64,000 bases of DNA from NCBI GenBank assembly GCA_964571845.1, contig CAZNDM010000050.1, positions 11,676 to 75,675 of the forward strand. The letters are read 5' to 3'. The stretch's first letter is position 1. Every line of letters starts with the position of its first letter. Origin of the DNA: an uncultured bacterium. GTDB taxonomy: Bacteria > Hydrothermota > Hydrothermia > B15-G9 > WFZT01. Of the stretch, positions 3,481 through 64,000 are shown piece by piece. The position numbers and the translations under genes are program-made. The notes beneath the pieces were generated by a model, which was not told where the DNA came from, did no database searches, and worked only from the letters and a program-made list of their open reading frames with translations.

Positions 3481-4161
3481 CTATCTACCCACAAAATATC
3501 GCATTTCCTGATCAAGATGATAATCTGGAACGATTGCCGAGCCATCGTATTTGACTTTTACATGAGCAACGATCATCCCTCTAAAGGAAAGCGGAATTAC
3601 CCAGGCTGCTTCAGGTTCTCTGTATTCCGCACCATCCAGTACTTCAAGGTTTTTAATAATTTCAGGTGCTTTTGAGCCGATTGTCTGGAGAGAGACAGTC
3701 ATCGAAAACACATGCGGGTTGTAACCCATGGGCAGAACAGTTCCATTGGAGGGATCAAATCTCAGAGCAGCGATGGCAACGCCTTGATAGGTTATGGCAG
3801 CTTTCACCTCAATTTCTCCTCTCGGCGCGCGTGTTGCCCAGACTCCCCCGAACTGGAAGTAGGGCTTCGCTTCGCGCACAGCTTCAATTACGGTATGAAT
3901 GTCGTGGGGCAACTGTGGTATGAAGGTCCCGGGTGGTGTAGCCATACCTGGTGGCGGAACAGGTCCGGGCGGGATTTCTGGACCAGCAGGATGTGCGGGA
4001 ATACCTGGAGGAGTCTTTCCGAATGCCGGAGGTGCTGGTGAGACTGGCGGTGGAGAATCTTGAATACCCCTGTCTGGCTCCTCCGGGGTTTGCCCGTTTG
4101 CCATTTTCACACCGGCAAATACCAGTGGAAGCATCAGAAACAACAAATATAATAGCTTCAT
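3481..4161 (-). CDS. Secreted hypothetical protein with a proline-rich linker
   Basis: Signal peptide 'MKLLYLLFLMLPLVFAG'. Pro-rich low-complexity stretch (PPPVSPAPPAFGKTPPGIPAHPAGPEIPPGPVPPPG) followed by a ~150-aa globular C-terminal domain. Strong AT-rich upstream region. Confidence 0.5.
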   Translation of the reverse strand: MKLLYLLFLMLPLVFAGVKMANGQTPEEPDRGIQDSPPPVSPAPPAFGKTPPGIPAHPAGPEIPPGPVPPPGMATPPGTFIPQLPHDIHTVIEAVREAKPYFQFGGVWATRAPRGEIEVKAAITYQGVAIAALRFDPSNGTVLPMGYNPHVFSMTVSLQTIGSKAPEIIKNLEVLDGAEYREPEAAWVIPLSFRGMIVAHVKVKYDGSAIVPDYHLDQEMRYFVGR

Positions 4162-4617
4162 TTTATCACCTCCTATCTGAATAAATTCTAAAACCGAACA
4201 GGTTTTGTGTCAATCAATTTGAAACTGTGTCTCAAAATCGATTTAAAAGCCATTTTTAACTTGATTTTTCAGGGGTAATCTCATATTCAATGAATATGAT
4301 TACTTTTTGATTTTTGCATGGAGTGTGTGTTCATTACTTTTTATATTTTCGGAATATCAAGGGTTTCGGCTTCCGATCTATTATCGATTTAAATTTTTAT
4401 TTTGTAAAAAATACCGGAGGGATCTAAAAAGTACGGTTTTTTAGTGTAAAATAGATTGAGATGTCGGGAATTAAAATGATGGGTTTGCCTGTTTTTCTGT
4501 TATTTCATCATAGGATCAAATGCGCTGATTCTGGTACACGGTAGCGCCGTTTCATTCGTCTTGGCGGGAGTACTTGACATCGTCTTTTCTTTTCGTTTTG
4601 CGAGAGTATGTAATGTC

Positions 4618-4735
4618 TTCTCCCCTCCCATTTGCGAGGAGATCCACCCACGACCCTCCCGCTTTGCGGGAGGGGATTGAGGGGAGGGTGAAAGGCACCT
4701 TTTGCCCCCTCCTTAATCCTCCACCTCAAGACATC
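4618..4735. repeat. GC-rich palindromic repeat element (family member 1)
   Basis: Perfect hairpin 'ccctcccgc-ttt-gcgggaggg' at 4654..4674. Flanked by 'gggattgagggg' and by 'tgccccctccttaatcctcc', a 20-mer identical to 25411..25430. Possible ~11-bp flanking direct repeats 'gacatcgtctt'/'gacatccgtctt'. Sits in a GC-poor intergenic region. Confidence 0.6.
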
Positions 4736-5088
4736 CGTCTTGTGGGAAAGAAGATTGATAAGTGTCCCCCACATTGCTGGCATATCGTGGAGGAGGACGG
4801 TGAGTGTCCTCCTACCCCGTACTGAACGCTCTGAGAAAGGAAGTTAAAAATTACATGGACCTTTTTACCTCAAAAGAATTTTTTCGAACACCTCCCCTTT
4901 GCTTTTCCATTTTACTACACCCTTTCTTTCATTTTTTCTCCCTACTTTATAGTGGTGGGGAGAGATAACCTTCTTCTTAAATTAACTGCGGGTAGGCGGG
5001 TAAAACTTACATTCCTATTTTTCTCCAGACAATTTTTTCACCTTCCTTTGTATGGCATTATAATAACGGGACAAAAAGGAGGAAAATT

Positions 5089-5577
5089 ATGGGAACAAAG
5101 GGAAGAGAACTTGTTGGAGAACATGCTGATAAGATTATTGAGCTGTTAAACAGGGCTCTATGTGACGAATGGCTCGCCTATTACCAGTACTGGATTGGAT
5201 CAAAAGTTGTTAAGGGACCGATGAAAGATGCGGTTATAGCTGAGCTTATGGAGCACGCCAACGACGAGCTACGACACGCTGACATGCTTGTCGCAAGGAT
5301 TCTGGAGCTCGGTGGTACACCAGTCCTGTCCCCCGAGGAGTGGATGAAACTCACAAATTGCGGGTATGATAGACCAGATGATCCGGTTGTACGGAAAATT
5401 CTTGAGCAGAACATCAAGGGAGAACAGTGTGCTATTGATGTTTACAACAGTCTTTTGAAGTACACAAAAGATGTTGATCCTATCACTTACAACCTTGCTC
5501 TCCAGATATTAACTGATGAAGTTGAGCATGAGGAAGACCTTCAGGCTCTTCTCGAAGACCTTGAAAATATGAGGTGA
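5089..5577 (+). CDS. Ferritin-like diiron protein (bacterioferritin/Dps-like)
   Basis: 162 aa. 'ELLNRALCDEWLAYYQYW...ELMEHANDELRHADMLVARILELGG' parallels bacterioferritin helix A/B iron-ligand spacing. Strong RBS 'aaaaggagg' 7 nt upstream of the ATG. Its stop abuts the carB stop. Confidence 0.6.
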   Translation: MGTKGRELVGEHADKIIELLNRALCDEWLAYYQYWIGSKVVKGPMKDAVIAELMEHANDELRHADMLVARILELGGTPVLSPEEWMKLTNCGYDRPDDPVVRKILEQNIKGEQCAIDVYNSLLKYTKDVDPITYNLALQILTDEVEHEEDLQALLEDLENMR

Positions 5578-17398: not shown

Positions 17399-19954
17399 AT
17401 GCTGATTTTCCTCATTACAATCCTATTTTCTCTGAATCAACAGGATGGATGGTTCTATTTATATACTCTCAGGGACACCATTTCGCCAGTCATAGAGGTG
17501 CCGGAGGAATCTGAAAGTGGCGAAAGTATTACACTTCGTGGATCAAAGACGATTTCAATCAGCACAGGATCTGATGGTGAATTGCAGATTCAGCAGGGAC
17601 TCAGATTAACAATTGATGGCAATATTGGAAAACTTGGAGAAATTCAGGGGGTGGTAAATGATAACAGCGACGCCCCGACCGGTGTGGTTTCGAGAACCCT
17701 GTCTGGATTTAGCGAGATTTATTTAAAATACCTTTATCGAAATTTCACCTGGAGTTTTGGGAAGATAAACCTCACAACCGATTATTACTCGTCTCCCATG
17801 CTTGGTGGTATGATGGAATACAGGGGCGAAGATTCTGATATAAAATTCGCCTACGGAGAAGTGCCGGGGGTGTACAGAATACGCACATTTACAGGGATTA
17901 CAAACCCGGCTCTACCTTTGAAGATAACTGACAATGGAGAACAGATCGTCAGTGGCACTATCCGGGTTTATCTGAATGGAAACCCCTTAAAGGAGAACAA
18001 AGATTTCAGTGTGGACTACATAACTGGCACCGTATACTTCTTACCCGGAGTTGAAATAAAACCAGATGACAGGCTCAGGGTCGAATATATTTCCAGCGAA
18101 TCTTTTGGCAGAAAATGGCTTACAGGTGTAAACCTGAGTTTACGGAAGGAATTCTATTCCCTGAATTTAAACTTTATTCAGGAGGCGGATGACAGAGCCT
18201 ACTGGCTCGATAATCTTGGAAGTGAAGCAATTGATTCACTCAAAGACAAAGAAGGTAGAGTTATGATCCCTGCGTGGAGATTCGTCGGGGAGGGCCAGGG
18301 AGATTATGACCTTTTGGATAGTATTTTTGTCTATAGAGGTGAAGGGGAAGGGAGTTATTCAGTTAGTTTCACTTATGTGGGGCTTGGTAAAGGAGACTAC
18401 AGGTTTAACGACGCTGGAGGATTTTTTTACTTTGCAGGTAAAGGTATGGGTGATTATACTCCTTTCATCACAATAACTCCTCCATTGAGAAGAAGGAAAA
18501 TTCTTATCAACTCCAGCTTGAAACGGGGAGGTTTTGTACTCAAGGGAGGGACCTACATAAGTCTTTTGAAGAAAAATCTTTTTTCAAATTCACCGGAAAG
18601 CCAGAATTTGGACGGATTTGCAGGACTGGAGTACAGGAGTAGAGCCCTATCATGGAAACTACTGGCGTTTCAAACTGATTCCGTAGGGTTTTATCTTGCA
18701 GATGACCTTGAAGATCAAAGAGGAAGAGGATTTTTGGGAGCTTTTACTGTTAAAAAATTTAAGAACCTGGAACCCGGGATCGAATATTCAAAGTCAGACG
18801 AAGCAACGAAGTTAAAGTTATGGCTGCGGGGTAGATCTTATAGAATTTATTATGAAAAATCAGATTCCACAGAAAAATATGGTGGAAAGGTTTTATTTTC
18901 TGCCGGAGCAGTAAGGGCTTATTTCGGCGGAGAGAGATTTTATTCAGAAATAGCGTATGATCAGATTTATGGAGGTGCTAGCTATGTCCCATATCTGACG
19001 CTCAAGACTTCAAGGAAATTTTTCTACGATGGGAAGGTGGAGGATGATCTCAATGTGAATTTCCAGAACGAGAATTTGACCCTGGGTTATAGACTGATAA
19101 AAACTTCACCCGGTGATTCCCTATTTCAATCTATCCTGTGTGATTATTCTGGTTTTACCCAAAACATCGGATACTCACTCAGGTTTCGTTATAGAGAGGA
19201 TTTGCAGAAGGATGTATCCTTCAGATACATCTATGTTGGTGATGGCAACGGTAATTATTCTTACGATTCGACGAGCGGAAGATTTTATCGGGATCCCCTT
19301 GGTAGTTATGAGAGACAGGTGATGTACAGTGGCCAGGATGCTGGCATAAAGAGCCTTTTCGGGGATCTGGCACTAAACATATCGAGACTTTCCCTCAAAT
19401 TTTCGGGCACGATCAAATTTTCTAATAAAGTTACATCCAGGCAGGAAAATTTCTACCTTACTTATTCCGACAATAGATTTTATGGTAATTTCACAAAAGT
19501 TTTTGACTATCATCTCGATGAGGAGAATGTTTTTGAAGATGGAACGGCAGAGTACAGACATGGACAGTTAATTCCGGGTATCAGGTATATACGAAGTGGT
19601 GGAACGGAAATGACGGATGACAGATACATCGAGATCTACGGAAAATTCAGACATAGAAAACTTCAGTTGAAGTTGGGAAGTTTCTTCAGACCTTCGTATC
19701 CTCCGGGTCTGAGTGCAGGATTTAGCTTAGGAAGAGAAATTCTGTCAGGTTTTTTTCAAGCAAACCTGGATTTTAGCTATGTCTCTGCTGCTCCTGCTGG
19801 GGCTTTTCCTCCAGAAGGTATGTCTTTCATGTATTCATTAAATTATTCTCACAGGTTTTTGGCAAGCACAGGAGGAAACCTTGAATTACGCGGGAGAAAG
19901 CAGAAGGGAAGACACATCTACACACTCAGGTTTTCACTTTCCATTGAGTTTTAA
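17399..19954 (+). CDS. Large outer-membrane beta-barrel-like hypothetical protein
   Basis: 851 aa with an N-terminal hydrophobic signal. Very rich in Y/G/S/D/N beta-strand patterns. C-terminal '...RFSLSIEF' ends in Phe, the OMP beta-signal. Divergent from the exopolysaccharide operon by only 42 bp. Confidence 0.5.
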   Translation: MLIFLITILFSLNQQDGWFYLYTLRDTISPVIEVPEESESGESITLRGSKTISISTGSDGELQIQQGLRLTIDGNIGKLGEIQGVVNDNSDAPTGVVSRTLSGFSEIYLKYLYRNFTWSFGKINLTTDYYSSPMLGGMMEYRGEDSDIKFAYGEVPGVYRIRTFTGITNPALPLKITDNGEQIVSGTIRVYLNGNPLKENKDFSVDYITGTVYFLPGVEIKPDDRLRVEYISSESFGRKWLTGVNLSLRKEFYSLNLNFIQEADDRAYWLDNLGSEAIDSLKDKEGRVMIPAWRFVGEGQGDYDLLDSIFVYRGEGEGSYSVSFTYVGLGKGDYRFNDAGGFFYFAGKGMGDYTPFITITPPLRRRKILINSSLKRGGFVLKGGTYISLLKKNLFSNSPESQNLDGFAGLEYRSRALSWKLLAFQTDSVGFYLADDLEDQRGRGFLGAFTVKKFKNLEPGIEYSKSDEATKLKLWLRGRSYRIYYEKSDSTEKYGGKVLFSAGAVRAYFGGERFYSEIAYDQIYGGASYVPYLTLKTSRKFFYDGKVEDDLNVNFQNENLTLGYRLIKTSPGDSLFQSILCDYSGFTQNIGYSLRFRYREDLQKDVSFRYIYVGDGNGNYSYDSTSGRFYRDPLGSYERQVMYSGQDAGIKSLFGDLALNISRLSLKFSGTIKFSNKVTSRQENFYLTYSDNRFYGNFTKVFDYHLDEENVFEDGTAEYRHGQLIPGIRYIRSGGTEMTDDRYIEIYGKFRHRKLQLKLGSFFRPSYPPGLSAGFSLGREILSGFFQANLDFSYVSAAPAGAFPPEGMSFMYSLNYSHRFLASTGGNLELRGRKQKGRHIYTLRFSLSIEF

Positions 19955-24767: not shown

Positions 24768-25408
24768 AGAGGATAAATTATACCTTAATCGAAGGTGCTC
24801 GAAAAATATTTTTCATTAATTGTTTTGAGGAAAAACTCTCTTTTTTCTTCTGTTTCGGGAATACCACTCTGGATATCCATACTATGGGCACAACTTTGGT
24901 CTCGCTTTTTACTGTAGCGAAAAGGCTCCCGGAGTCTTCCTCCATTTGATAAAAAGCAGTGTAAAAGTTTTTGGGTGTTCTCCACACTCTGCGGAAGGCA
25001 AATTCACCCACTCTTATCTCGCCCTACGATGAGCTTACCCGAAAACCTCCCACCGTTCGCATGAGAGTTAACCCAATGTCTCCCCTTCGGCTTTTCGGGA
25101 AACCATTCTACAACTTCACCCATCATGAAAAGGAAAGGGTTATCCTCACAATCACTCTTCCGTTTAGTGGAGGGATTACATAAAATCTCTCCTCCCTCGA
25201 AATAGATGGATTTCTCCACAAACTTTCCCTCCCGCCTTGTGTGAAAGACCACTTACCACCTCTTCTCCCATGTGGTGTGACGGCTCACCTTCAACCTTCT
25301 ATCCCAAGAAATGGGAGCGTTCATCTATGGCTTCCCCTTCCAAGAGGTGGAGGATTGAGGGGATGGGAACGAAAGCACTCTATGCTCTCCCCGGTCTAAT
25401 CTGTTCTT

Positions 25409-25880
25409 TCTGCCCCCTCCTTAATCCTCCCCCGCTTCGCGGGGGAGGAGATTGAGGGAAAATCCCCCACGAAGCGGGGGAGGAGATTGACGGGAAATTT
25501 CTCGCGAAGTGGGGAGGAGTTTGGAGGAAATTCTTCTGCGAAGCGAGGGAAGAGGATTGACAGAAAGTCTCCCATGAAGCGGGGGAGGAGGAAGACGAAA
25601 AATCTCTCGCGAAGTGGGGGAGAGGATTGATGAGAAGTTTCTCGCGAAGTGAGGGAGAAGAATGGTGTAAAACTCCCGTGAAGCAGAGGAGGGGATTGAT
25701 GTAAAATCTTCTGCATGGTGAAGGAGGGGTTTGAAGGAAAAACCCTCGAAAAGCAGGGGGAAGATTTTGTCGAGTCTCCTCTACCACAGCGTTAACATAC
25801 TACAGGGACAGGGTTGAGGGGATCTCCCCGCATTGCGAGAGAGGGATTGGCGGAAAATCATCCGCACTTAGGGGGAGGCG
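25409..25880. repeat. GC-rich palindromic element followed by a degenerate ~35-bp tandem repeat array (~9 units)
   Basis: Near-perfect ~47-bp palindrome 'ccctccttaatcctcccccgc-ttcg-cgggggaggagattgaggg' at 25413..25459. Then head-to-tail units such as 'gaagcgggggaggagattgacgggaaatttctcgc', each an imperfect 'yctcyc-GAAG-ygggggag' hairpin plus 'gaggattga' and a variable tail. Confidence 0.7.
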
Positions 25881-26007
25881 GTGGAGGAGGTTAAAAGATG
25901 CATTCATACTTTTTCCAAAAGCCTTTTTGATCGACCCTCCTTCCTGCTGTTAACAATCGTTGTCGTATGCAATAAAATAGTGTGATATACACTTCGGGAG
26001 GAAAGAT

Positions 26008-33635: not shown

Positions 33636-34859
33636 GTGTCCATGAGAAGGATATTGTTTATCCTCATATTTACGGGATTCCTGTCTGCGCAGTTTGAGCC
33701 TGATACTTTAAATACCGTTGGCGGCGGGATGGGTGTATCGGTTATAGATGGAAATCCTTATATTTCATTCAATCTGTCAACGGAGTTGAGGTTTGGTAAA
33801 CTGGGGGTGGGGCTCAATATCCCTCTTCTTTTCAGTCCAAAAGACGGGATAAAAAAGGATGACTGGGACTCAAAGAGAGACTATGCAAGGATAATCTCAT
33901 ACATCAGGTATGGGTATAGGGGATCACCTTTCTATGTGAGGTTGGGGGCATTGAACTTTACCACACTTGGCCACGGTTTTCTCGTTTACAATTATTCGAA
34001 CCGTGTGAGGACAGATGTTGTTAAAATTGGAATGGAAATGTCCATTGATCGTGGTTTGTGGGGACTGGAGTTTTTCAACAGCGATTTTGGGAGACTTGGC
34101 GTTGTGGGTGCGAGGGTGGTTGCCCGCCCCTTTTTGGGGGTGCCAATTGTAGAGCGGCTTGAGTTTGGTGCTTCCTATGTGAGGGATTTTGATCCTGATG
34201 AAAGAAAGGACACCGATGACGGAATCTCGGCATTCGGTTTTGATGCAGGTTTTCCCATTTTTGAATATTCACTCCTGAGTACAGAAGTCTATATGGATTA
34301 CGGGAATATTGTTGATAACGGACATGGTGCCGCTGAAGGTATCATCTTTAGATTTTCCAGACTTGGAATATTCGATCTATCCCTCAAACTCGAAGAGAGA
34401 CAGCTTTCAGCACACTTTTTGCCTGCCTACTTCAACAGGATGTACGAGGTTGATAAGTTTACAAAGCAGGAGATACTTGACTCGATTACAGAAGGTGAGA
34501 ACGGGAGTTTTGGAGAACTTTACGCAGAGGCACTGGGTAAATTGAAGGCATACGGAAATTTTTTCCATAAAAAGGGTGTCAAAAACAGCGGTGTTCTGAA
34601 TCTTTATGCAACAACTGGCACAATGTTCCCTCTTTTCAGGGTCAACTGGAGGTACTTTAAGGACAGAATTGAAACCATGAATGATATCTTCTCCATTGAC
34701 GAAAGGTCAGTACTTTTTACAGAAATCGGTTACAGAATGAATCCATACACGACTGTTTATATGGTGATAACGAGGAGATATCGTTTGGACGAGGAAACAG
34801 GCGAGTTTGAGCCTGAAGACACCTATAGTATCAGAGCAGATTTCAGCTGGCGGTTTTGA
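33636..34859 (+). CDS. Hypothetical outer-membrane beta-barrel-like protein
   Basis: Signal peptide 'MSMRRILFILIFTGFLSAQF'. Beta-strand-rich. C-terminal '...RADFSWRF' ends in Phe. Confidence 0.45.
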   Translation: MSMRRILFILIFTGFLSAQFEPDTLNTVGGGMGVSVIDGNPYISFNLSTELRFGKLGVGLNIPLLFSPKDGIKKDDWDSKRDYARIISYIRYGYRGSPFYVRLGALNFTTLGHGFLVYNYSNRVRTDVVKIGMEMSIDRGLWGLEFFNSDFGRLGVVGARVVARPFLGVPIVERLEFGASYVRDFDPDERKDTDDGISAFGFDAGFPIFEYSLLSTEVYMDYGNIVDNGHGAAEGIIFRFSRLGIFDLSLKLEERQLSAHFLPAYFNRMYEVDKFTKQEILDSITEGENGSFGELYAEALGKLKAYGNFFHKKGVKNSGVLNLYATTGTMFPLFRVNWRYFKDRIETMNDIFSIDERSVLFTEIGYRMNPYTTVYMVITRRYRLDEETGEFEPEDTYSIRADFSWRF

Positions 34860-37590: not shown

Positions 37591-38565
37591 AGAAAAATCA
37601 CATCGGGCTTGGATAAGGGAACTCAGCGAATTTTTATAAACAATAAGATTTTCAGGAAATACCGCACCATTTAATACCTTATTGTGAAGATTGATTGATG
37701 GCGACAGGATGTGTACCCCTTACAATCCGTCCTCCCACAGTGCCAAACACACAGCGGATAAGAAAGTTGTAGAAACCTTCTCATGCTCTTATAAGATTTG
37801 ATCGTGGTCCAGGTGTCCGAATGATATTACATACCATTCGACAGAAGAGATACCCCGTCATCCTTTCGAGAAATGGGATGGAATTTTCTAAGCTCCTCTG
37901 CAAATGGGTAGTGAATCTCTCACAGAATTTCTCGCATGCGAAATAACTTCCCAAAGCATTCCCCCCAAGTTCGGCACAGGGGGATAGAGGCGAGGAAGAG
38001 AAGACACCTTTGACAGCGTTCGTTGTTTATCTTTTAAAATCAGAATGTTTTGACAGGCTTTTCCTGAGGATCTGAGGCAACCATATCTCTCACAAAATAC
38101 ACACAGACAGATGATCCTTCTCCTCATCTCCCTCTGAAGGAATGCCCGAAATTTCTACGAAATTTATTCTCCGGTTGCCTTCTTCATCTCTATCTGGATA
38201 GCCTGGTCCTCTTTGATCTTTTCAATTTCTTTGATTTTCTTTTAAAGATTCCTTTCCCTGTCACTTTTATGGAAAAGTAGAGCTCCCTTTTCTCCTTCCA
38301 AAAACCTCCATTCGTAGTGGAGATATTTGCTTATCCGATACTTCTTTATTTAAATGTTTCCCTTGAGCCCTTCAAGTACAATAGCCACTTTTGTTTCAGG
38401 ATCAAATTCTCGACGATTATGTTAATTTTCTAATCAGTAGGCTAAATCCAGCAGCATATTTAAATCCCCATGGAAACGGATCAGCTTGCCAGAACGCCCA
38501 ATTTTTCCACATCAATCTTCTCCACGGATTAGTAAATTTTCACTATATAGGCATCACCTGAAAGC

Positions 38566-38594
38566 TTGACTTATCATTAGTAATTCTTTACAAT
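38566..38594 (+). promoter_or_regulatory. Putative sigma70-like promoter (TTGACT-N17-TACAAT) upstream of the Fe-S/molybdoenzyme operon
   Basis: Seen directly: 'cTTGACTtatcattagtaattcttTACAATcgg', ~80 bp upstream of an RBS 'aggagg' and the ATG at 38676. Confidence 0.35.
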
Positions 38595-38675
38595 CGGAGC
38601 AATTGCATTTTTGCTCATAGAAGTATTAAATACTAATTTTGTGGGCGCTCTTTCAAATAATAGGAGGTTAGTTGT

Positions 38676-39454: not shown

Positions 39455-42400
39455 ATGAAAAGAAGAGAATTTGTTAAATCAGCAGCCTTTGTTGGGGGAT
39501 ATGCGGCTCTCGCCTCAAAGCTTGAGGCAAGTTCCAATATGATGAATTTCATTGTGCAAAAAGCCGCATCCGGCCAGATCTCTTATCCCCTCGCCCGTCC
39601 CCAAAATGTAATATACTCCGCCTGCCTGCAGTGTCACACGAGTTGCACAATTAAAGTTAAAATTTTAAATGGAATTGCCGTTAAGATCGATGGAAATCCT
39701 TATTCTCCGATGAACATGATTCCTCAACTTCCTTACTCCACACCACCCACCGAGGCAGCGAAATTCGACGGTAAACTTTGCCCAAAGGGACAGGCTGGTA
39801 TACAGACCCTCTACGATCCTTACAGATTAAGAAAAGTACTGAAAAGAGACGGTCCAAGAGGCTCAAATAGGTGGAAAGTCATCTCATTTGAACAGGCTAT
39901 CAATGAAATCGTAAACGGTGGGTACCTTTTTAAACATGTGAAGGGGGAAGAAAATCGTTATGTCCATGGACTTAAGGATATCTACAAACTTCGCGATCCA
40001 GCAATCCTTAAGAAGATGAAAAAAGATGCTGCACTTGTGGCAAAGAAGAAGATGAGCGTGTCCGATTTCAAACGGAAATACGGGAAATATCTCAACACCC
40101 TCATCTCTCCAGATCATCCGGACCTTGGTCCAATCAATAATCAGCTCGTATTCATGGCAGGCAGGATCGAGCATGGGAGAAAGGAATTTGCCAAAAGATG
40201 GCTTTACGACGCATTTGGAAGCGTGAACTTCTACGAGCATACCACAATCTGTGAACAATCTCATCACATTGCGTATAAATCCGCGACCAAAAAATATGTA
40301 AATGGAAAATGGGTTTCCGGAAAAGAGCACATGAAACCTGATGCCCTGAACAGTGAGTTCATTATCTATTGGGGAACCGGTGCATTTGAAGCCAACTTCG
40401 GTCCCACGCCGATTTCAGAAAAAATCACAGAAGGTATTGCAACTGGTAGGCTGAAGATTGCTGTCGTTGACCCTCGTCTCAGTAAAACAGCTGCCAGAGC
40501 ATGGAAATGGCTACCTGTGAAACCAGGTTATGACGCCGCCCTCGCCCTCGGCATGATTAGATGGATCATAGAAAATAAACGCTTCGACGAAAAGTACCTC
40601 AGGGCATCCAATAAATCAGCCGCAAAACTAAACAATGAAACCACATGGACCAATGCAACTTATCTTGTGAAAATAGAGAAAGATGGACCCGGTGCACTTC
40701 TGAGAGCCAGTGAATTAGGCATCGGCGACGAACACACTTTTGTTGTTATTAGCAACGGTAAACCCACTCCTGTTAAACCAGAGTCAGGTGCACCTGTAAC
40801 GGGTGAACTCTTCTATTCAGGCAAGGTCAATGGAATAAAGGTAAAATCTGTCTTCCAATTACTCAAGGAAGAGGCATTTTCGAAATCCCTCGACGAGTGG
40901 GCTCGCCTCGCGGGCGTAACTGCCAACGATATTGCCGAGCTTGCAAGCGAATTTACATCCCATGGTAAAAAGGCAGCTATTGACTTTTACAGAGGTCCTG
41001 TTCAGCACCCCAACGGATATTACAACGGCTATCTCATTATTGTTCTCAATCTGCTGATAGGAAATCCCGATTGGAAGGGTGGACTATCTGCCGGCGGTGG
41101 TCACTGGCATGAGATGGGCAACAAACGCAAGGGACCTTTTAACCTCAAGGCAATGCATCCCGGAAAGTTGGGCTCCTTCGGTGTCAAGCTCACAAGGGAG
41201 AAATCTAAATACGAAGATACCACCCTCTTTGAAGGTTATCCTGCAAAAAGACCCTGGTTCCCATTTACAGGGAATGTGTACCAGGAAATCCTGCCCTCCG
41301 CAGCTGACGGATATCCTTACAAAATTAAGGCATTGATTCTCCATAAGGGAACCCCGGCATTCGCATCTCCAGCAGGACATACGAACATCGAGATTCTCAA
41401 AGATCTCGACGCTATCCCCCTTTTCATCGCCTGTGATATTGTTGTCGGTGAAACTTCCATGTACGCAGACTACATTTTCCCGGATACAGCTATCTGGGAA
41501 AGATGGGGCACCCCGCACATCACTCCCGATGTCCCGGCAAAAACAAGTAAAGTTAGACAACCGACGGTTACACCACTGACAGAAATTGTCTCCGTGTTTG
41601 GCGAGAAGATGCACCTCTCAATGGAAGCCTTGCTCCTTGCCATTGCTGAGAAGCTTAATCTCCCGGGATACGGAAAGGACGGATTTGGAAAGGGCTGGGA
41701 TTTCAAACGACCGGAAGATTATTACCTCAAAATGGTTGCAAATATAGCGGCTGGTGACAAGGTTGGAGAAGAGGTTCCTGACGCAAGTTTCAATGAATTA
41801 AAGATATTCAGAAGTGCAAGAAGACACCTCGATAAAGCGACTTTTGATGAAAACAAATGGATCCGAGCAGTTGGAAAAGAATGGTGGAAAAAGGTGGTGT
41901 ATGTCCTCAACCGCGGCGGCAGGTTTGAAGACCTGACCAACAAATTTATCGGGGAAGGCAAACTTGTTCATAAATTCGGTAGAATGTTTAATATTTACTT
42001 CGAACCCGTTGCACTTGCAAGAAATCCCATGAACGGCAGGAGATTCTCTGGCATGGGGACATTTAGACCCATAACAGATGTTGCTGAAAAACCGATCAGG
42101 GATTCCAAATATCCGCTTTATCTCATCACATACAAAGAAATCTTCGGCGGCCAATCAAGGACCATTGGTGATTACTGGATAACCCAGACCTATGCTCCGG
42201 AGAATTATGTGTACATCCATCCGGCTACAGCGAGGAGGTACAATCTCCGCGATGGCGACATCGTGAAAATTGTTTCCGCAACCAATCCTGAGGGAGTCTG
42301 GGATCTCAAAAATGGTCAGAGAATCCCGGTTGCAGGTAAGGTGAAAATCACAGAGGGTGTCAGAAAAGATGTTGTCGCAGTCTCCTGGTCTTACGGGCAC

Positions 42401-42589
42401 TGGGCCTATGGAGCCAGCGACATCATAGTGGATGGTAAGGTGATAAAAGGGGATAAGAGGCGCGCGACAGGGTTATGTCCAAATGCTGTCATGAGAATCG
42501 ATCCGGTGTTGAAGAATGTCTCAATGGAGGATGTGATCGGCGGTTCTGCGTCCTACTTTGATACAAGGGTTGAGCTTGTGAGAATTTGA
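39455..42589 (+). CDS. Molybdopterin (bis-MGD) oxidoreductase catalytic subunit, Tat-exported; substrate unknown (tetrathionate/polysulfide/arsenate-reductase-like)
   Basis: Tat signal 'MKRREFVKSAAFVGGYAALAS'. N-terminal [4Fe-4S] motif 'CLQCHTSC...CPKG'. 1044 aa. Confidence 0.8.
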   Translation: MKRREFVKSAAFVGGYAALASKLEASSNMMNFIVQKAASGQISYPLARPQNVIYSACLQCHTSCTIKVKILNGIAVKIDGNPYSPMNMIPQLPYSTPPTEAAKFDGKLCPKGQAGIQTLYDPYRLRKVLKRDGPRGSNRWKVISFEQAINEIVNGGYLFKHVKGEENRYVHGLKDIYKLRDPAILKKMKKDAALVAKKKMSVSDFKRKYGKYLNTLISPDHPDLGPINNQLVFMAGRIEHGRKEFAKRWLYDAFGSVNFYEHTTICEQSHHIAYKSATKKYVNGKWVSGKEHMKPDALNSEFIIYWGTGAFEANFGPTPISEKITEGIATGRLKIAVVDPRLSKTAARAWKWLPVKPGYDAALALGMIRWIIENKRFDEKYLRASNKSAAKLNNETTWTNATYLVKIEKDGPGALLRASELGIGDEHTFVVISNGKPTPVKPESGAPVTGELFYSGKVNGIKVKSVFQLLKEEAFSKSLDEWARLAGVTANDIAELASEFTSHGKKAAIDFYRGPVQHPNGYYNGYLIIVLNLLIGNPDWKGGLSAGGGHWHEMGNKRKGPFNLKAMHPGKLGSFGVKLTREKSKYEDTTLFEGYPAKRPWFPFTGNVYQEILPSAADGYPYKIKALILHKGTPAFASPAGHTNIEILKDLDAIPLFIACDIVVGETSMYADYIFPDTAIWERWGTPHITPDVPAKTSKVRQPTVTPLTEIVSVFGEKMHLSMEALLLAIAEKLNLPGYGKDGFGKGWDFKRPEDYYLKMVANIAAGDKVGEEVPDASFNELKIFRSARRHLDKATFDENKWIRAVGKEWWKKVVYVLNRGGRFEDLTNKFIGEGKLVHKFGRMFNIYFEPVALARNPMNGRRFSGMGTFRPITDVAEKPIRDSKYPLYLITYKEIFGGQSRTIGDYWITQTYAPENYVYIHPATARRYNLRDGDIVKIVSATNPEGVWDLKNGQRIPVAGKVKITEGVRKDVVAVSWSYGHWAYGASDIIVDGKVIKGDKRRATGLCPNAVMRIDPVLKNVSMEDVIGGSASYFDTRVELVRI

Positions 42590-42591
42590 GG

Positions 42592-42637
42592 GATGGGGGA
42601 GGGGGCGGGCCGAAGGCCCGCCCCCTCCCTCAAACAT
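42592..42637 (+). terminator. Perfect GC-rich hairpin (14-bp stem, GAAG loop) 3' of the molybdoenzyme gene; probable terminator/REP-like element
   Basis: 'ggagggggcgggcc-gaag-ggcccgccccctcc' immediately after the TGA. There is no clear T-tract, so intrinsic-terminator status is tentative. Confidence 0.5.
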
Positions 42638-43116
42638 GAAAAATCAATTCCCCGGAAAATTCACCTTAATCCTTTCCAGATACCAACCAGCTTTTTACTG
42701 ATTGAACAAAAGAAGCTGTATATTCCTTCCCCAATCTCCATTCACAAATCAAAGTTTCATAATGCTCAAGGGGTATAAGGTTACAAAAAATTTCCAGAGG
42801 TGTGAAACCCTTTTGACTGGCACTTCTCATAACAGTCTTTAAAAACTTTCAATTACTTTTCGTGGATGGGATCAAAGGGAGGCGATGTTTGCTCTTTCAA
42901 CGCCATAGTAAAGCTCTCTGGAAAGTAGGGTTCTCCCACGCTTTAAGGGGGTATGGTTATATTTGCCTTTTTGTACAAATTTTTAAAACTTCATAACGCT
43001 CAACACCTTGAAAATAACACCTTGAAAATCCAGGTTGTGCATATTACACCGTGTAAAATTCCATCTGATTCGGGATATTTGATCTTTTCATAGTTTTTCA
43101 GCAGGGAGTGTATAGA

Positions 43117-43425
43117 TTAAACCTGTTTGCCCTCGAGTTTTTCGATTTTATCCTCGATCTTTATTATCAGGTTAAAAGTTCTGTGAATGGTTTTTCTGAC
43201 AACGGTATTCCAGACAATAGGATAGACATGTTTCTTCCACTTCCTCAAGATTTGCTGAGATTTTCTAAGGCTTAAAACGACCTTCTTCAGGAATTCGGGA
43301 TTTGTGAGGTAATTAAGCTGATCCTCAATGAAGTTCACATCCCGCAATGTGGTTATCGAGTATTTGATCACAGTTAAATTGAATGTTAGCTTTGTCCAGA
43401 AGGCGTATATCCTGTATTTCAGCAT
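43117..43425 (-). CDS. Hypothetical small protein (partner of PNK-like kinase)
   Basis: 102-aa ORF 48 bp downstream of and co-oriented with the kinase gene. No recognisable motifs. AT-rich. Confidence 0.3.
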   Translation of the reverse strand: MLKYRIYAFWTKLTFNLTVIKYSITTLRDVNFIEDQLNYLTNPEFLKKVVLSLRKSQQILRKWKKHVYPIVWNTVVRKTIHRTFNLIIKIEDKIEKLEGKQV

Positions 43426-49819: not shown

Positions 49820-49861
49820 ACCATGGAGGAATGTGTTTAGTATTGTGAGGAGGTTTTCCAA

Positions 49862-50215
49862 TGACCTCCTCCTTCGCCGGGGAAATTCTAAACTCCACAA
49901 AGCTTTGCCTTGTGGGGGAATTGAGGAGGGGCAGGCAGATCTGACAGGAAGAAGCAGGTGGGCTTTTATTGCCCTCCCTTTAATCCCCTCCCGCAGGCGG
50001 GAGGGGGTGTGGACACTTTTCACATGCTGCTATGCAAGGTGTTGAAGAGCAATCGACAAACTCCTCCCCCACTTCGCTGGGGAAATTCTAAATTCCTCCC
50101 CCACTTTGTGGGGGAGGATTGAGGAGGGGGCAAAAAGAGCAGATCTGCTGGAGGGAAGGAGATGAGGTATTTTCCCCTCCCCTCAATCCCCTCACACTTC
50201 GTGGGAGGGGAGTTT
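49862..50215. repeat. Cluster of GC-rich palindromic repeat elements, including two ~85-bp direct repeats
   Basis: Hairpins 'cccctcccgc-agg-cgggagggg', 'ccccactttgtggggg', 'cccca-cttcgc-tgggg' and 'cctcacacttcgtgggagg', each with an 'attgagg'/'cctcaatcc' flank. The ~85-bp direct repeats are at 49862..49945 and 50062..50152. 'ttgccctccctttaatcccctcccgc' echoes the 4700 and 25410 copies. Confidence 0.6.
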
Positions 50216-50407
50216 GTAGGTAGTCCCCTTCATGTAACGGAAAGGGAAGTTGGGTGTAATCTTTCCTACAAGATGGGATTTTGCAAGCATAGGGGTGGAA
50301 ATAAAGAGGTTTTTTCGCAAAATAAAGAGGGAGTAACCACTTGTAAAATATTTTTCGAACACCCTACAGTGTTTGTTTGACTATATATTTGGGCTGAATT
50401 AAAATTA

Positions 50408-61654: not shown

Positions 61655-62557
61655 TTACGCGAGAGGAAGTTCGTAAGAGAATATAATGTGTACCCCTTTC
61701 TCTTGGGCGTATTTCCTGACTTTTGATGAGGTGTGGTAAGTTATTAAAACAAGGAACTTGTCACCCGGGATGTATCTGTCAAGGAGTTTAATGTAGCCAA
61801 GGAATTTATCGATATCCCTTTTCCTTGCCTGAGCTTTAGACTCTCCTATGATCGTGAAAGTTTTTCCGTTTTGTTTGCCTTTACCTATAATGTTAATTTC
61901 GATTTCACGATTTTCGATTTCGAGCATTTCTCGTTTTAATGGGCCTATAGTTTCAATGTTGAATCTCTCTTTCAGGATTGAAGGTAATCCTTTAATAGCC
62001 CTATCTTCGAGTACATAGCCAAAGGCGTTTGTGAGACCGCCGAGATGTTCTCGTGTCTTTTTGTGCTCCTGGGTGAGTTTCTTAAGCTCTCTCTCAGTTT
62101 CTTTTTGTGCGAGAGCAAGTTCATTGAGCCTTTCTTCAGTTCTTTTTTGAGCAATGGCAAGTTCATTAACTCTCTGTTCAGTTCTTTTTTGAGCTTCAGC
62201 CAATTCATTGAGCCTTTCTTCAGTTTTCTTTTGAGCTTCAGCTAATTCACTAACTTTTTGTTCAAGTTTACTGTGTGCGAGAGCAAGTTCATTAAGCCTT
62301 TCTTCGGTTCTTTTTTGAGCAATGGCAAGTTCATTAACCCTTTGTTCGGTTCTTTTTTGAGCTTCAGTGAGTTCGTTAATAGCTTTCCACACCCTGTTAA
62401 AGTTCTCATTCGTTGTTCTGACGAACTCTTGGAATTCTTTTCTTGTAACAGTTTCTCCGATAATACGCTCAGCCTCTTCCAGGAAACTGATGAATACGTC
62501 CCTGAGTTTAGGATCTTCTATACTTTCAAGTTTTCTAATAAGTGAGGCTCTAACCAT
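61655..62557 (-). CDS. Coiled-coil protein with seven 14-aa tandem repeats and a C-terminal PD-(D/E)xK-nuclease-like domain (hypothetical)
   Basis: Repeats 'AIAQKRTEERLNEL / ALAQKETERELKKL'. C-terminal 'EIENREIEINIIGKGKQNGKTFTIIGESK' resembles an E..(E/D)-x-K nuclease-fold motif. Confidence 0.45.
   Translation of the reverse strand: MVRASLIRKLESIEDPKLRDVFISFLEEAERIIGETVTRKEFQEFVRTTNENFNRVWKAINELTEAQKRTEQRVNELAIAQKRTEERLNELALAHSKLEQKVSELAEAQKKTEERLNELAEAQKRTEQRVNELAIAQKRTEERLNELALAQKETERELKKLTQEHKKTREHLGGLTNAFGYVLEDRAIKGLPSILKERFNIETIGPLKREMLEIENREIEINIIGKGKQNGKTFTIIGESKAQARKRDIDKFLGYIKLLDRYIPGDKFLVLITYHTSSKVRKYAQEKGVHIIFSYELPLA
62075..62380. repeat. 42-bp tandem repeat (~7 copies, with a 168-bp higher-order duplication) inside the coiled-coil gene
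   Basis: Units such as 'gcgagagcaagttcattgagcctttcttcagttcttttttga' and 'gcaatggcaagttcattaactctctgttcagttcttttttga'. Copies 1/5 and 2/6 are nearly identical. Confidence 0.7.
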
Positions 62558-62661: not shown

Positions 62662-64000
62662 GTGAGAGCATATCCAGAAGAGTTTTTTGTCAGAAAAGAA
62701 AAGGTTGAAAAACTCCGCCAACTTGGAATTGAGCCATATCCGTATAAGTTCAATGTAACACATCATTCAGCCGAGATTAAGGAACAGTTTGATAAACTCC
62801 AGGGAAAAGAAGTCTCGGTTGCCGGAAGGATTATGACAAAAAGGGTATTTGGTAAGCTTAATTTTGCCCATTTAAGAGACGAATACGGTGATATTCAGAT
62901 CGTAACACAGAAAGGAGTTACATCTGTTTCAGATCTGCCCGGTGAGGACGGATCAAAATTTTTCAAAAAATTTATTGATACAGGTGATATAATTGGTGTC
63001 AGGGGAGAAGTAATAAAGACAAAAACTGGAGAGATCAGTGTTCTTGCGAAAGAGCTGAAGATACTTTCAAAAGCTCTGCTACCTCTACCAGAAAAATGGC
63101 ACGGTCTCCAGGATAAAGAACTTAGGTATAGAGAGAGATATCTTGATCTTATAGTTAATCCTGAATCAAGACGGGTCTTTAAAACGAGAAACAGAATCAT
63201 AAGTTTTATAAGGGAATTTCTAAATGATCGAGGATTTCTCGAAATGGAGACACCGGTTTTGCAGCCCATATACGGCGGAGCTATGGCAAAACCTTTTGAA
63301 ACCTACTCGCATGTACTTGGCACTAAATTGTACCTCAGGATATCTAATGAGCTATACCTGAAGAGACTGCTTGTTGGTGGTTTTGAAAAAGTCTATGAAT
63401 TTTCAAAAGATTTTAGAAATGAAGGAATTGACCGACTGCATTATCCGGAGTTTACCCTCCTTGAAGCTTATGCCGCTTACTGGGATTACGAGGATATGTT
63501 GAGAATGACAGAAGAGCTTCTCTCTCAACTCGCACTTGAGATAAAAGGGTCTTTTGAATTTGAATACCAGGGAGAGAAGATATCTTTTAAGCCACCTTTC
63601 GAGAGAATCGATTATGTAAGATCTTTGGAAAAGCATCTGGGTTTTAATCCCCTTGAGGTTGACGAAGAAAAGCTCAGGAAAGCCGCAGAGACTCATGGTA
63701 TTGAAAAGTTCGAGAAATTACCAAAGCATAAGCTGATGGATAAACTTTTTGACAAGATTATTGGTGATAAAATAAAAGATCCAGCGTTTGTTATCAATCA
63801 TCCAGTTGAAATTTCTCCTCTTGCAAAAAGACATCGTGAGATTCCCGGAGTTACTGAGAGGTTTGAGCTCTTCATCCTTGGGATGGAGATAGCCAACGCA
63901 TTTTCAGAACTCAATGATCCTATTGATCAGAGGCAAAGATTTGAAAAACAGGTGGAACTGAGAAAATTGGGTGATGCCGAGATTCCGGCTGAAATTGACG
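62662..64000 (+). CDS. lysS: Lysine--tRNA ligase (class II), 5' portion; runs off the window
   Basis: GTG start after 'ccagggagga'. 'VAGRIMTKRVFGKLNFAHLRDEYGDIQIV' (anticodon-binding OB fold), 'ETPVLQPIYGGAMAKPF', 'RFELFILGMEIANAFSELNDP'. Not in the ORF track because it has no stop codon within the window. Confidence 0.85.
   Translation, partial: MRAYPEEFFVRKEKVEKLRQLGIEPYPYKFNVTHHSAEIKEQFDKLQGKEVSVAGRIMTKRVFGKLNFAHLRDEYGDIQIVTQKGVTSVSDLPGEDGSKFFKKFIDTGDIIGVRGEVIKTKTGEISVLAKELKILSKALLPLPEKWHGLQDKELRYRERYLDLIVNPESRRVFKTRNRIISFIREFLNDRGFLEMETPVLQPIYGGAMAKPFETYSHVLGTKLYLRISNELYLKRLLVGGFEKVYEFSKDFRNEGIDRLHYPEFTLLEAYAAYWDYEDMLRMTEELLSQLALEIKGSFEFEYQGEKISFKPPFERIDYVRSLEKHLGFNPLEVDEEKLRKAAETHGIEKFEKLPKHKLMDKLFDKIIGDKIKDPAFVINHPVEISPLAKRHREIPGVTERFELFILGMEIANAFSELNDPIDQRQRFEKQVELRKLGDAEIPAEID

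Follow-up and report, generated by a model that had tools for sequence, protein, structure and literature searches.

What kind of repeat occupies positions 4618-4735 of the DNA studied here, a stretch of 64,000 nucleotides (hereafter the window) on contig CAZNDM010000050.1 of GenBank assembly GCA_964571845.1, from an uncultured bacterium of the Hydrothermota? An earlier note on this DNA described the segment as the first copy of a dispersed family of GC-rich palindromic elements, possibly a miniature inverted-repeat transposable element (MITE) with target-site duplications, or alternatively a small-RNA family. With a probability that we put at roughly 70%, the repeats in the window are intergenic DNA repeats of the BoxC/PIT/triplex-motif (TM) type. 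They are non-coding, DNA-level elements, probably selfish or structural, and probably neither genes, small RNAs nor classical MITEs.

The segment lies inside a 927-bp gap (4162-5088) between an open reading frame (ORF) of 226 amino acids (aa; 3481-4161, minus strand) and a ferritin-like gene (5089-5577, plus strand). The main features from which the family had been proposed were present: a GC-rich module (55.8% GC, compared with 33.6% and 40.5% in the adjoining intergenic DNA), a perfect 9-bp hairpin of CCCTCCCGC (4654-4662) and GCGGGAGGG (4666-4674) around the loop TTT, and the flank GGGATTGAGGGG (4673-4684). The 20-mer TGCCCCCTCCTTAATCCTCC, said to be identical at two places, was exact at both (4703-4722 and 25411-25430), and hairpin, flank and 20-mer are far beyond chance expectation. 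The further copy placed at 49970-49990 with two or three changes is related, but differs by about five changes or indels and gave no match with up to 3 mismatches; the true near-exact third copy lies on the minus strand (50113-50132, 1 mismatch). The chance expectation for this 20-mer in the window is none, even with 3 mismatches allowed. GC-rich blocks of this kind have 54-56% GC and the spacers around them 34-44% GC, and all units described below are confined to the gaps 4162-5088, 24768-26007 and 49820-50407, which are among the four largest between genes in the window. The ORFs 4574..4825 (plus strand) and 4508..4783 (minus strand), which overlap on opposite strands across the copy 1 repeat in a region that is not conserved in the relative L129 (L numbers denote loci fetched for comparison), are very likely artefacts, as the earlier note had held; in annotation generally, the same would very likely apply to ORFs called over such blocks.

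The key to the identity of the element was a relation that the earlier note had overlooked. The G-rich flank of the hairpin is the mirror image, and not the complement, of the hairpin purine arm, as in GGGAGGGGA-TTG-AGGGGAGGG at 4668-4688 and in GGGGGAGGA-TTG-AGGAGGGGG at 50108-50128. On one strand, a unit of ~35-40 nt is composed of a C-rich pyrimidine arm, a short loop, the complementary G-rich purine arm, a turn of TTG or TTA and, last, another G-rich tract mirroring the purine arm, for example CCTCCCCC-loop-GGGGGAGGA-TTG-AGGAGGGGG. As pyrimidine arm, purine arm and mirror purine tract stand on the same strand, this is the layout of a class II purine-motif intrastrand triplex motif. The 20-mer is such a unit viewed from the opposite strand, CCCCCTCCT-TAA-TCCTCCCCC-loop-GGGGGAGGA.

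The window was searched strictly for the succession of pyrimidine arm, loop, purine arm, loop and third tract, with 8 triads and at most 1 mismatch. Four units were returned, at 4653-4688 and 50095-50130 on the plus strand and at 49972-50006 and 25413-25448 on the minus strand (window 4654-4688, CCCTCCCGCTTTGCGGGAGGGGATTGAGGGGAGGG; window 50095-50130, CCTCCCCCACTTTGTGGGGGAGGATTGAGGAGGGGG), whereas neither 100 shuffles of the window nor 200 of the three intergenic regions contained any. About four decayed units accompany them (4703-4759, 25331-25372, 49896-49936 and 50174-50213), and the triad scores of the window units range from 7 to 9 of 9. The units are arranged as inverted pairs of two subtypes, the GGGAGGGGA type and the GGGGGAGGA type, around a spacer. 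A GGGAGGGG-type unit stands together with a GGGGGAGG-type unit at 4654-4759, as also in L133, L134 and L143, and L140 contains the intact counterpart of the decayed right-hand unit of copy 1, CCTCCCCC-TCAAGAC-ATCC-GTCTTG-TGGGGGAGG-AGATTGA. Extra small hairpin modules before and after the pairs extend the whole to a mosaic of ~150-250 bp. In the third gap, units 4L and 4R form a 46-nt inverted repeat with 74% complementarity, and 49862-49936 is a direct repeat of 50060-50132; in the second, the repeating unit GCGGGGGAGGAGATTGACGGAAAATCTCCCGCGAA of a tandem array looks like a local amplification of the unit 2R hairpin. When folded as single-stranded DNA using ViennaRNA, which models the hairpins and leaves triplexes outside the model, the composites folded far better than their shuffles (z = -3.9 and -5.4). 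Coordinates of all units and modules are collected in Table 1.

The relation between purine arm and third tract was followed across genomes by scanning the family 16-mer CCCCTCCTYAATCCYC against genome contigs, which gave at least 117 loci, the genome of the window not being among those listed; the statistics below refer to these 117 and the window. Labels of metagenome-assembled genomes (MAGs) among the matches listed included Patescibacteria/Saccharibacteria, Xanthomonadales, Dehalococcoidia, Nitrospirota, Bacteroidota, Alphaproteobacteria and others, and most of the listed matches, from very different phyla, continue as CCCC-loop-GGGGAGGA, several with an inverted partner upstream. A third tract compatible with triads at 9 of 9 positions was present in 121 of 386 hairpin views, compared with 0 of 386 with shuffled flanks, and 53 of the 121 compatible views did not overlap the searched 16-mer. 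Among 81 distinct combinations of arm, turn and third tract, A shifts its place within the purine arm, and the third tract changes accordingly (arm/third tract: GGGGGAAGG/GGATGGGGG, AGGGGAGGG/GGGTGGGGT, AGGGGGAGA/AGAGGGGGT and GGGAGAGGG/GGGTGAGGG). Circularity was reduced by dropping units that overlap the 16-mer and by leave-one-out counting. In the resulting counts, internal A of the purine arm was opposed by A 86 times, T 39 times, C 5 times and G 6 times (A or T, 92%), and internal G was opposed by G 423 times, A 14 times, T 6 times and C once (G, 95%). The turn was TTG in 51, TTA in 28, ATTAA in 13, ATTGA in 9 and CCG in 8, where ATTAA and ATTGA are other registers of the TTG/TTA turn.

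A or T opposite A, together with G opposite G, is the purine-motif code; simple mirror duplication would give A only and does not fit the T found opposite A. Purine-motif triplexes do not form in RNA according to Semerad & Maher 1994, as that work is cited in PMC4666352. As the code fits the purine motif, and given that statement on RNA, the constraint would lie on the single-stranded G-rich DNA strand, which points to selection on that strand rather than on RNA or duplex DNA. A pyrimidine-motif (C+.G-C) RNA or DNA triplex on the C-rich strand was set aside as the form under selection, since it would require consecutive protonated Cs and since about one third of the A-opposed third-tract bases are T, which is read as A on that strand and is a mismatch. 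Shine-Dalgarno/anti-Shine-Dalgarno mimicry, a CsrA sponge, a G-quadruplex and an i-motif were also rejected, as none of them accounts for position-specific mirror covariation.

Repeats with this layout have been described in E. coli as BoxC/PIT/TM_ECO, with the consensus CCCTCNCCC-N3-6-GGGNGAGGG-N3-GGGNGAGGG (Holder et al. 2015, NAR 43:10126, PMC4666352; for earlier work on BoxC/PIT, see Bachellier et al. 1999; Hoyne, Edwards, Viari & Maher 2000, J Mol Biol 302:797; Hoyne & Maher 2002). TM_ECO is always intergenic, occurs on both strands and often as inverted pairs of type A (second loop TTA) and type B (second loop CCG), is not linked to transposons, phages or plasmids, and goes with raised local variability between strains (PMC4666352). 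The window elements share with it the class II block order (C-rich arm, 3-6-nt loop, G-rich arm, 3-nt turn, third tract), G/C-rich arms of ~9 nt, and turns that are TTA or TTG in the window and CCG in some fetched loci. They are likewise intergenic only, lie on both strands and frequently form inverted pairs of two subtypes, no association with transposases in the window or with phages was found, and the neighbouring DNA varies between relatives. The differences are in the arms (GGGGGAGGA and GGGAGGGGA in the window, GGGNGAGGG in TM_ECO), in the placement of the window units among extra hairpin modules and a conserved spacer of ~40 nt, which together make a longer mosaic, in the family-derived 35-bp tandem array of at least 10 hairpin units, and in the host, an uncultured non-proteobacterial lineage with ~43% GC. 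Mirror repeats that form H-DNA resemble the window elements in being homopurine mirror repeats, as in GGGGGAGGA-TTG-AGGAGGGGG, with the same triads. H-DNA, however, needs only a duplex mirror repeat and supercoiling, whereas the window motif also has the complementary pyrimidine arm on the same strand, so that all three triplex strands come from one DNA strand (intrastrand); its arms, of 8-9 nt, are also short.

The family extends well beyond the window. The metagenome scan found the exact 20-mer on 12 contigs, none of which (0/12) overlaps the window, and the check for further copies named in the earlier note thus came out in favour of a dispersed family of GC-rich, palindrome-containing intergenic elements. 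Seven of the 12 come from JGI sample 3300028908, which also has L119, a contig 99.7% identical to the window. The GC hairpin follows the 20-mer in 10 of the 12 and an inverted unit is also present upstream in 9, with the ~40-nt spacer conserved between both units in several; L135, L139 and L142 are without the inverted upstream unit or a strict unit, and L135 and L142 are also without the hairpin after the 20-mer. L062, a contig of another MAG that shares no genes with the window, carries a ~140-bp composite 78.6% identical to 4622-4729. In viral contigs, the family 21-mer had a single match among 2.9 million (plasmids were not searched). Most of the metagenome contigs (L133-L144) carry the 20-mer within 30-220 bp of a contig end. 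Of the contigs from other assemblies that cover this DNA, L121 breaks off within a repeat, at ~25428, and others stop some hundreds of bases from the blocks (4336 and 25094; L118/L120, ENA k141_518531); the repeats appear to break short-read assemblies.

Presence/absence polymorphism, the other check named in the earlier note, was found by comparing orthologous sites. The pdp-tpiA spacer measures 588 bp in the window and 47 bp in L122/L123, which have the same ispDF-pdp-tpiA-secG-rplU order and a 91% identical triosephosphate isomerase (TIM). In L124/L125 (TIM 88% identical), other genes lie upstream of tpiA, and the units at the site, TCCCCCTT-loop-AAGGGGGA-TTT-AGGGGGA in an inverted pair, belong to another triplex subtype. 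The spacer upstream of the nicotinate phosphoribosyltransferase (NAPRT) gene is 1240 bp long in the window, 391 bp in L145 (94% identical; another neighbour, two single units, no array) and 151 bp in L146 (89% identical; yet another neighbour, no units), so the tandem array is present in the window genome and absent from both relatives. The ferritin upstream region of L129 could not be aligned with that of the window, and it too has units, including CCTCCCCC-GCTTGC-GGGGGAGG-ATTGA-GGAGGGGG. The promoter-like sequences beside tpiA (TTGACTATATTTTTGNGCTGAATTAAAAT, 50368-50407) and upstream of the NAPRT gene (GTTAACAATC...TATGCAATAAAATA, 25950-26007) are kept in all relatives compared (L122-L128, L145, L146), and upstream of both everything varies between relatives. 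The elements come and go between close relatives, and at two of the three loci (tpiA in L124/L125; the NAPRT gene in L145 and L146) they coincide with a change of gene order. L118-L121 were rejected as evidence of polymorphism, being contigs of the same strain (99.4-99.9% identical).

A further short motif, (A)ATATTTTTCGAACAC, was found near-exact at 4879-4891 (plus strand), 24795-24807 (minus strand) and 50350-50362 (plus strand), as well as in L062, L124 and L140. Its distance from the triplex blocks is 100-200 bp, and the empty site in L122 is without it. It was considered as a possible element terminus, but it does not point the same way relative to the units at each block, and its count in the window (7, with 3.5 expected) is not significant; a role as a further mosaic module or as a site of regulation is conceivable.

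Several observations weigh against assigning the window repeats to the BoxC/PIT/TM class. The TM_ECO consensus CCCTCNCCC...GGGNGAGGG, sought on both strands of the window, gave no match. The exact TM_ECO pattern is present, however, in L001, L019 and L115, and in L001 it adjoins a GGGGGAGGA-type unit, which is the subtype of the window; the window elements would therefore be a different subtype of the same kind, not TM_ECO itself. The units of the tandem array are without a good third tract. The loci behind the statistics were gathered with the family's own 16-mer, which is a selection bias, and mirror matches arise more readily in low-complexity G/A tracts than in random sequence, but the controls speak strongly against a chance origin. 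The link to instability comes from three loci and a handful of relatives, as a comparison that is not genome-wide and has no control sites. As to the fold, the isolated G-rich strand of TM_ECO forms a very stable triplex by circular dichroism and nuclear magnetic resonance, with 18 extra imino signals; in vivo dimethyl sulfate footprinting, however, detected no TM_ECO triplex, and in vitro the duplex DNA wins when the complement is present (PMC4666352). The triplex may form only transiently or be irrelevant.

Among the other explanations, a MITE would be a non-autonomous transposon with terminal inverted repeats, a transposase encoded elsewhere and ~11-bp target-site duplications. It would agree with a dispersed multi-copy family, with a ~150-250-bp composite that has internal inverted repeats, with the pair of filled and empty sites, and with the ~140-bp composite in an unrelated gene context of another MAG, and the elements are small, non-coding, dispersed, polymorphic and able to fold into long hairpins, as are MITEs such as Correia/NEMIS, RUP and ERIC. 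The direct repeats said to bracket the module share only two 6-mers, GACATC and CGTCTT (4576-4586 and 4730-4741); the right-hand one is not a flank, and the duplication falls away: 4730-4741 is the apex of the extended stem CAAGAC-ATCC-GTCTTG inside the right-hand unit, which is intact in L140 and replaced by the compensatory variant CAATGC-AGA-GCATTG in L062. Flanking direct repeats of at least 8 nt were found at none of the copies (0), the junction of the filled and empty pdp-tpiA sites shows no duplication, and the inverted repeats are internal unit pairs and appear not to be termini that define ends. The sole long-range inverted repeat (4252-4272/4831-4851; AT-rich, 21 nt, 86% complementary) was not matched in the other two window blocks and was treated as chance. 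A Pfam scan of the ~46 window genes, five of them without any match, returned no transposase, integrase or Y1 (RAYT-type) family, no cognate insertion sequence was identified in the window, and the mirror third tract would be without function in a MITE, which we regard as an unlikely explanation. Mobilisation of inverted palindromic doublets as single-stranded hairpins by a RAYT (an IS200/IS605-type Y1 transposase) would dispense with target-site duplications, and repeats of the REP/BIME/REPIN-RAYT kind resemble the window elements in their short palindromic units, strictly intergenic location, many copies, mosaics, and inverted doublets that fold into long hairpins (z values given above). The conserved GTAG-type head is nevertheless not evident in the aligned copies, neither a RAYT nor a Y1 transposase was found in the window, and the triplet-code mirror tract would go unexplained. 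A REP sequence is as a rule confined to one species and its RAYT, whereas a near-identical 21-mer core is found here in many phyla. Such a REP/REPIN-like origin seems quite improbable.

An element acting as RNA, either a small RNA or a cis-regulatory structure in an untranslated region (a mimic of Shine-Dalgarno and anti-Shine-Dalgarno sequences, a CsrA-type GGA sponge array or a pyrimidine-motif RNA triple helix), would draw on the strong hairpins, the repeated GGAGG and CCTCC motifs, the at least 10 GGA-containing units of the array and some G-T (would-be G.U) pairs in long stems; CCTCCTTA is presumably equal to the 3' end of 16S rRNA. Rfam, however, gave no match to the whole window at the gathering score, and at E<=10 only sub-threshold noise of microRNA-like hairpins in 4400-5000. 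The units lie on both strands as inverted pairs, the tpiA block is upstream of the conserved promoter-like sequence and hence outside the tpiA leader, and the blocks are missing in close relatives that keep the same genes. T opposite A fits only the purine motif, which by the report cited in PMC4666352 does not form in RNA, and E. coli PIT elements are without promoter or terminator activity (PMC4666352). The small-RNA alternative of the earlier note is therefore not supported, the conserved mirror tract of the units following a DNA-only triplet code, and an RNA-level element of any of these kinds is very unlikely. Low-complexity sequence arising by chance, with no real family behind it, would gain from the few sequences possible in G/A-only tracts, which give some mirror matches by chance. 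It was refuted by the controls (zero 20-mer matches expected, zero strict units in shuffles, 121 third tracts at 9/9 against 0/386 with shuffled flanks) and by the 12 further contigs with the exact 20-mer (GC hairpin after it in 10, inverted unit before it as well in 9), and its probability is negligible.

If the repeats are of the BoxC/PIT/TM type, a course of events can be proposed; from the TM_ECO experiments and general knowledge of triplexes and hairpins as obstacles, we infer both the triplex folding and the mechanism of instability. When the G-rich strand becomes single-stranded in replication, repair or transcription, the hairpin would form, and the mirror tract would fold back antiparallel onto the purine arm as a reverse-Hoogsteen third strand, with G.G-C, A.A-T or T.A-T triads. 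The resulting purine-motif intrastrand triplex would be an obstacle that leads to polymerase pausing, slippage and error-prone repair. The elements would then amplify locally, decay, be deleted and mark rearrangement-prone intergenic sites; stalling, slippage and error-prone repair could in this way lie behind the array at 25439-25860, the duplication of ~200 bp at 49860-50215, the decay of some copies and the rearrangement of neighbours. As A stands at different positions in the paired subtypes, their third tracts are imperfectly complementary, and this may, speculatively, favour the intrastrand fold over a long cruciform stem. It is also conceivable, though doubtful, that the ~150-250-bp mosaic is itself mobile and is copied only when a conserved host factor of replication or repair, or an element-encoded enzyme, recognises the triplex fold of its single strand. 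The parts of such a mosaic are hairpin modules, a GGGAGGGGA-type unit, the conserved spacer, an inverted GGGGGAGGA-type unit and sometimes a ATATTTTTCGAACAC module. Its mobility, if true, would explain the near-same 21-mer GGGGGAGGATT(G/A)AGGAGGGGG from Patescibacteria to Proteobacteria, and the mosaics would then be selfish DNA of a class defined by its structure, spreading by a new mechanism of transposition or template switching, and not passive fragile sites.

BoxC/PIT/TM repeats have been known since the 1990s and are abundant in many bacteria, without an accepted function or a known way of spreading. The class is already described, and the window is a further example in an uncultured lineage. 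It adds a clean example outside Proteobacteria and Cyanobacteria, in which orthologous sites occur naturally in filled, partly filled and empty form and the units make up a mosaic of heterotypic inverted pairs and have expanded in tandem, and it adds cross-phylum statistics for the purine-motif triplet code in the third tract, including T opposite A. In the lineage of the window, the elements coincide with intergenic sites at which gene order differs between relatives.

Table 1. Triplex-motif units and associated modules in the window (Y, pyrimidine arm; L and R, left and right member of a pair).
Feature	Position	Strand	Sequence and remarks
Degenerate hairpin module upstream, composite copy 1	4618..4652	+	CTCCCCTCCC-ATTTGC-GAGGAGATCC, then CACCCACGA; aligns with L062, L133, L140, L143, L144
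Unit 1L, class II triplex motif	4654..4688	+	Y CCCTCCCGC 4654-4662, loop TTT; from strict search
Unit 1L, purine side	4666-4676 (purine arm), 4677-4679 (loop 2), 4680-4688 (third tract)	+	Purine arm GCGGGAGGGGA, loop 2 TTG, third tract AGGGGAGGG, mirror of GGGAGGGGA
Spacer between inverted units of copy 1	4689..4702	.	Deletion variant of the ~40-nt spacer; alignment of 12 composites
Unit 1R, inverted and decayed	4703..4759	-	Plus-strand reading: third tract CCCCCTCCT 4705-4713, TAA, Y TCCTCCACC 4717-4725
Unit 1R, remainder	4726-4742 (stem-loop)	-	Stem-loop TCAAGAC-ATCC-GTCTTG, then decayed purine arm TGGGAAAGAAGA, TTGA; unit 1R holds the 20-mer and the supposed right target-site duplication
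Unit 2L, degenerate	25331..25372	+	CTTCCCCTTCC-AAGA-GGTGGAGGA-TTG-AGGGGATGG
Unit 2R, perfect triplex motif	25411..25449	-	Plus strand TG-CCCCCTCCT-TAA-TCCTCCCCCGC-TTC-GCGGGGGAGGA; 0 mismatches, 8 triads
Tandem array, at least 10 units	25439..25860	+	34-36-nt period; GC hairpin, then GGAGATTGA, then A-rich linker
Hairpin module and degenerate unit 3L	49862..49936	+	CCTCCTCC-TTCG-CCGGGGAAATTCTAAAC; 3L CCACAAAG-CTTTG-CCTTGTGGGGGAA-TTG-AGGAGGGGC
Unit 3R, triplex motif	49970..50008	-	Plus strand TG-CCCTCCCTT-TAA-TCCCCTCCCGC-AGG-CGGGAGGGG; 1 mismatch
Hairpin module ahead of unit 4L	50060..50092	+	TCCTCCCCCAC-TTCG-CTGGGGAAATTCTAAATT
Unit 4L, perfect class II triplex motif	50093..50132	+	TTCCTCCCCCAC-TTTG-TGGGGGAGGA-TTG-AGGAGGGGG-CA; 0 mismatches
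Unit 4R, 7 triads	50174..50213	-	Plus strand CCCCTCCCCT-CAA-TCCCCTCACAC-TTCG-TGGGAGGGGA
Entire ~548-bp block	49820..50367	.	Missing from the orthologous pdp-tpiA spacer of L122/L123

Other intergenic features of the window were also recorded. Directly 3' of the stop codon of a molybdopterin oxidoreductase gene (39455-42589), at 42590-42633, lies a perfect 15-bp GC palindrome, GGGAGGGGGCGGGCC-GAAG-GGCCCGCCCCCTCCC, within a wider palindrome, TTTGAGGGA...TCCCTCAAA; it is G/C-rich in the style of the triplex units, but is without a mirror third tract or a T-run. The same 527-bp gap (42590-43116) contains an exact 14-bp tandem duplication of AACACCTTGAAAAT (x2) at 43002-43029. A 1085-bp gap at 37591-38675, without an ORF of at least 100 aa, an Rfam match or triplex units, could hold gene remnants. 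No tRNAs were found in the window. At the thresholds used, the ORFs 17399-19954 (851 aa), 33636-34859 (407 aa), 3481-4161 (226 aa), 43117-43425 (102 aa) and 62895-63269 (124 aa) had no Pfam match.

The ferritin-like protein encoded at 5089-5577 is 83-86% identical to Desulfurobacterium (Aquificota) proteins, whereas named homologues of other window genes, from Omnitrophota, WOR-3 and 'Candidatus Hydrothermia' MAGs, are only ~60% identical. This difference points to a horizontally acquired ferritin gene or to very strong conservation; the gene is probably mobile, and from the Desulfurobacterium matches a hydrothermal habitat may be guessed. ORF 61655-62557 (minus strand) contains a tandem repeat of 42/84 bp at 62094-62379 (6.8 copies, 72-73% matches); the ORF has only weak Pfam matches (DUF3782, DUF16), and its product is probably a repetitive structural protein. 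A single ORF of 559 aa at 873-2552 contains all three GARS (PurD) domains and an AIR carboxylase (PurE) domain, and looks like a PurD-PurE fusion.

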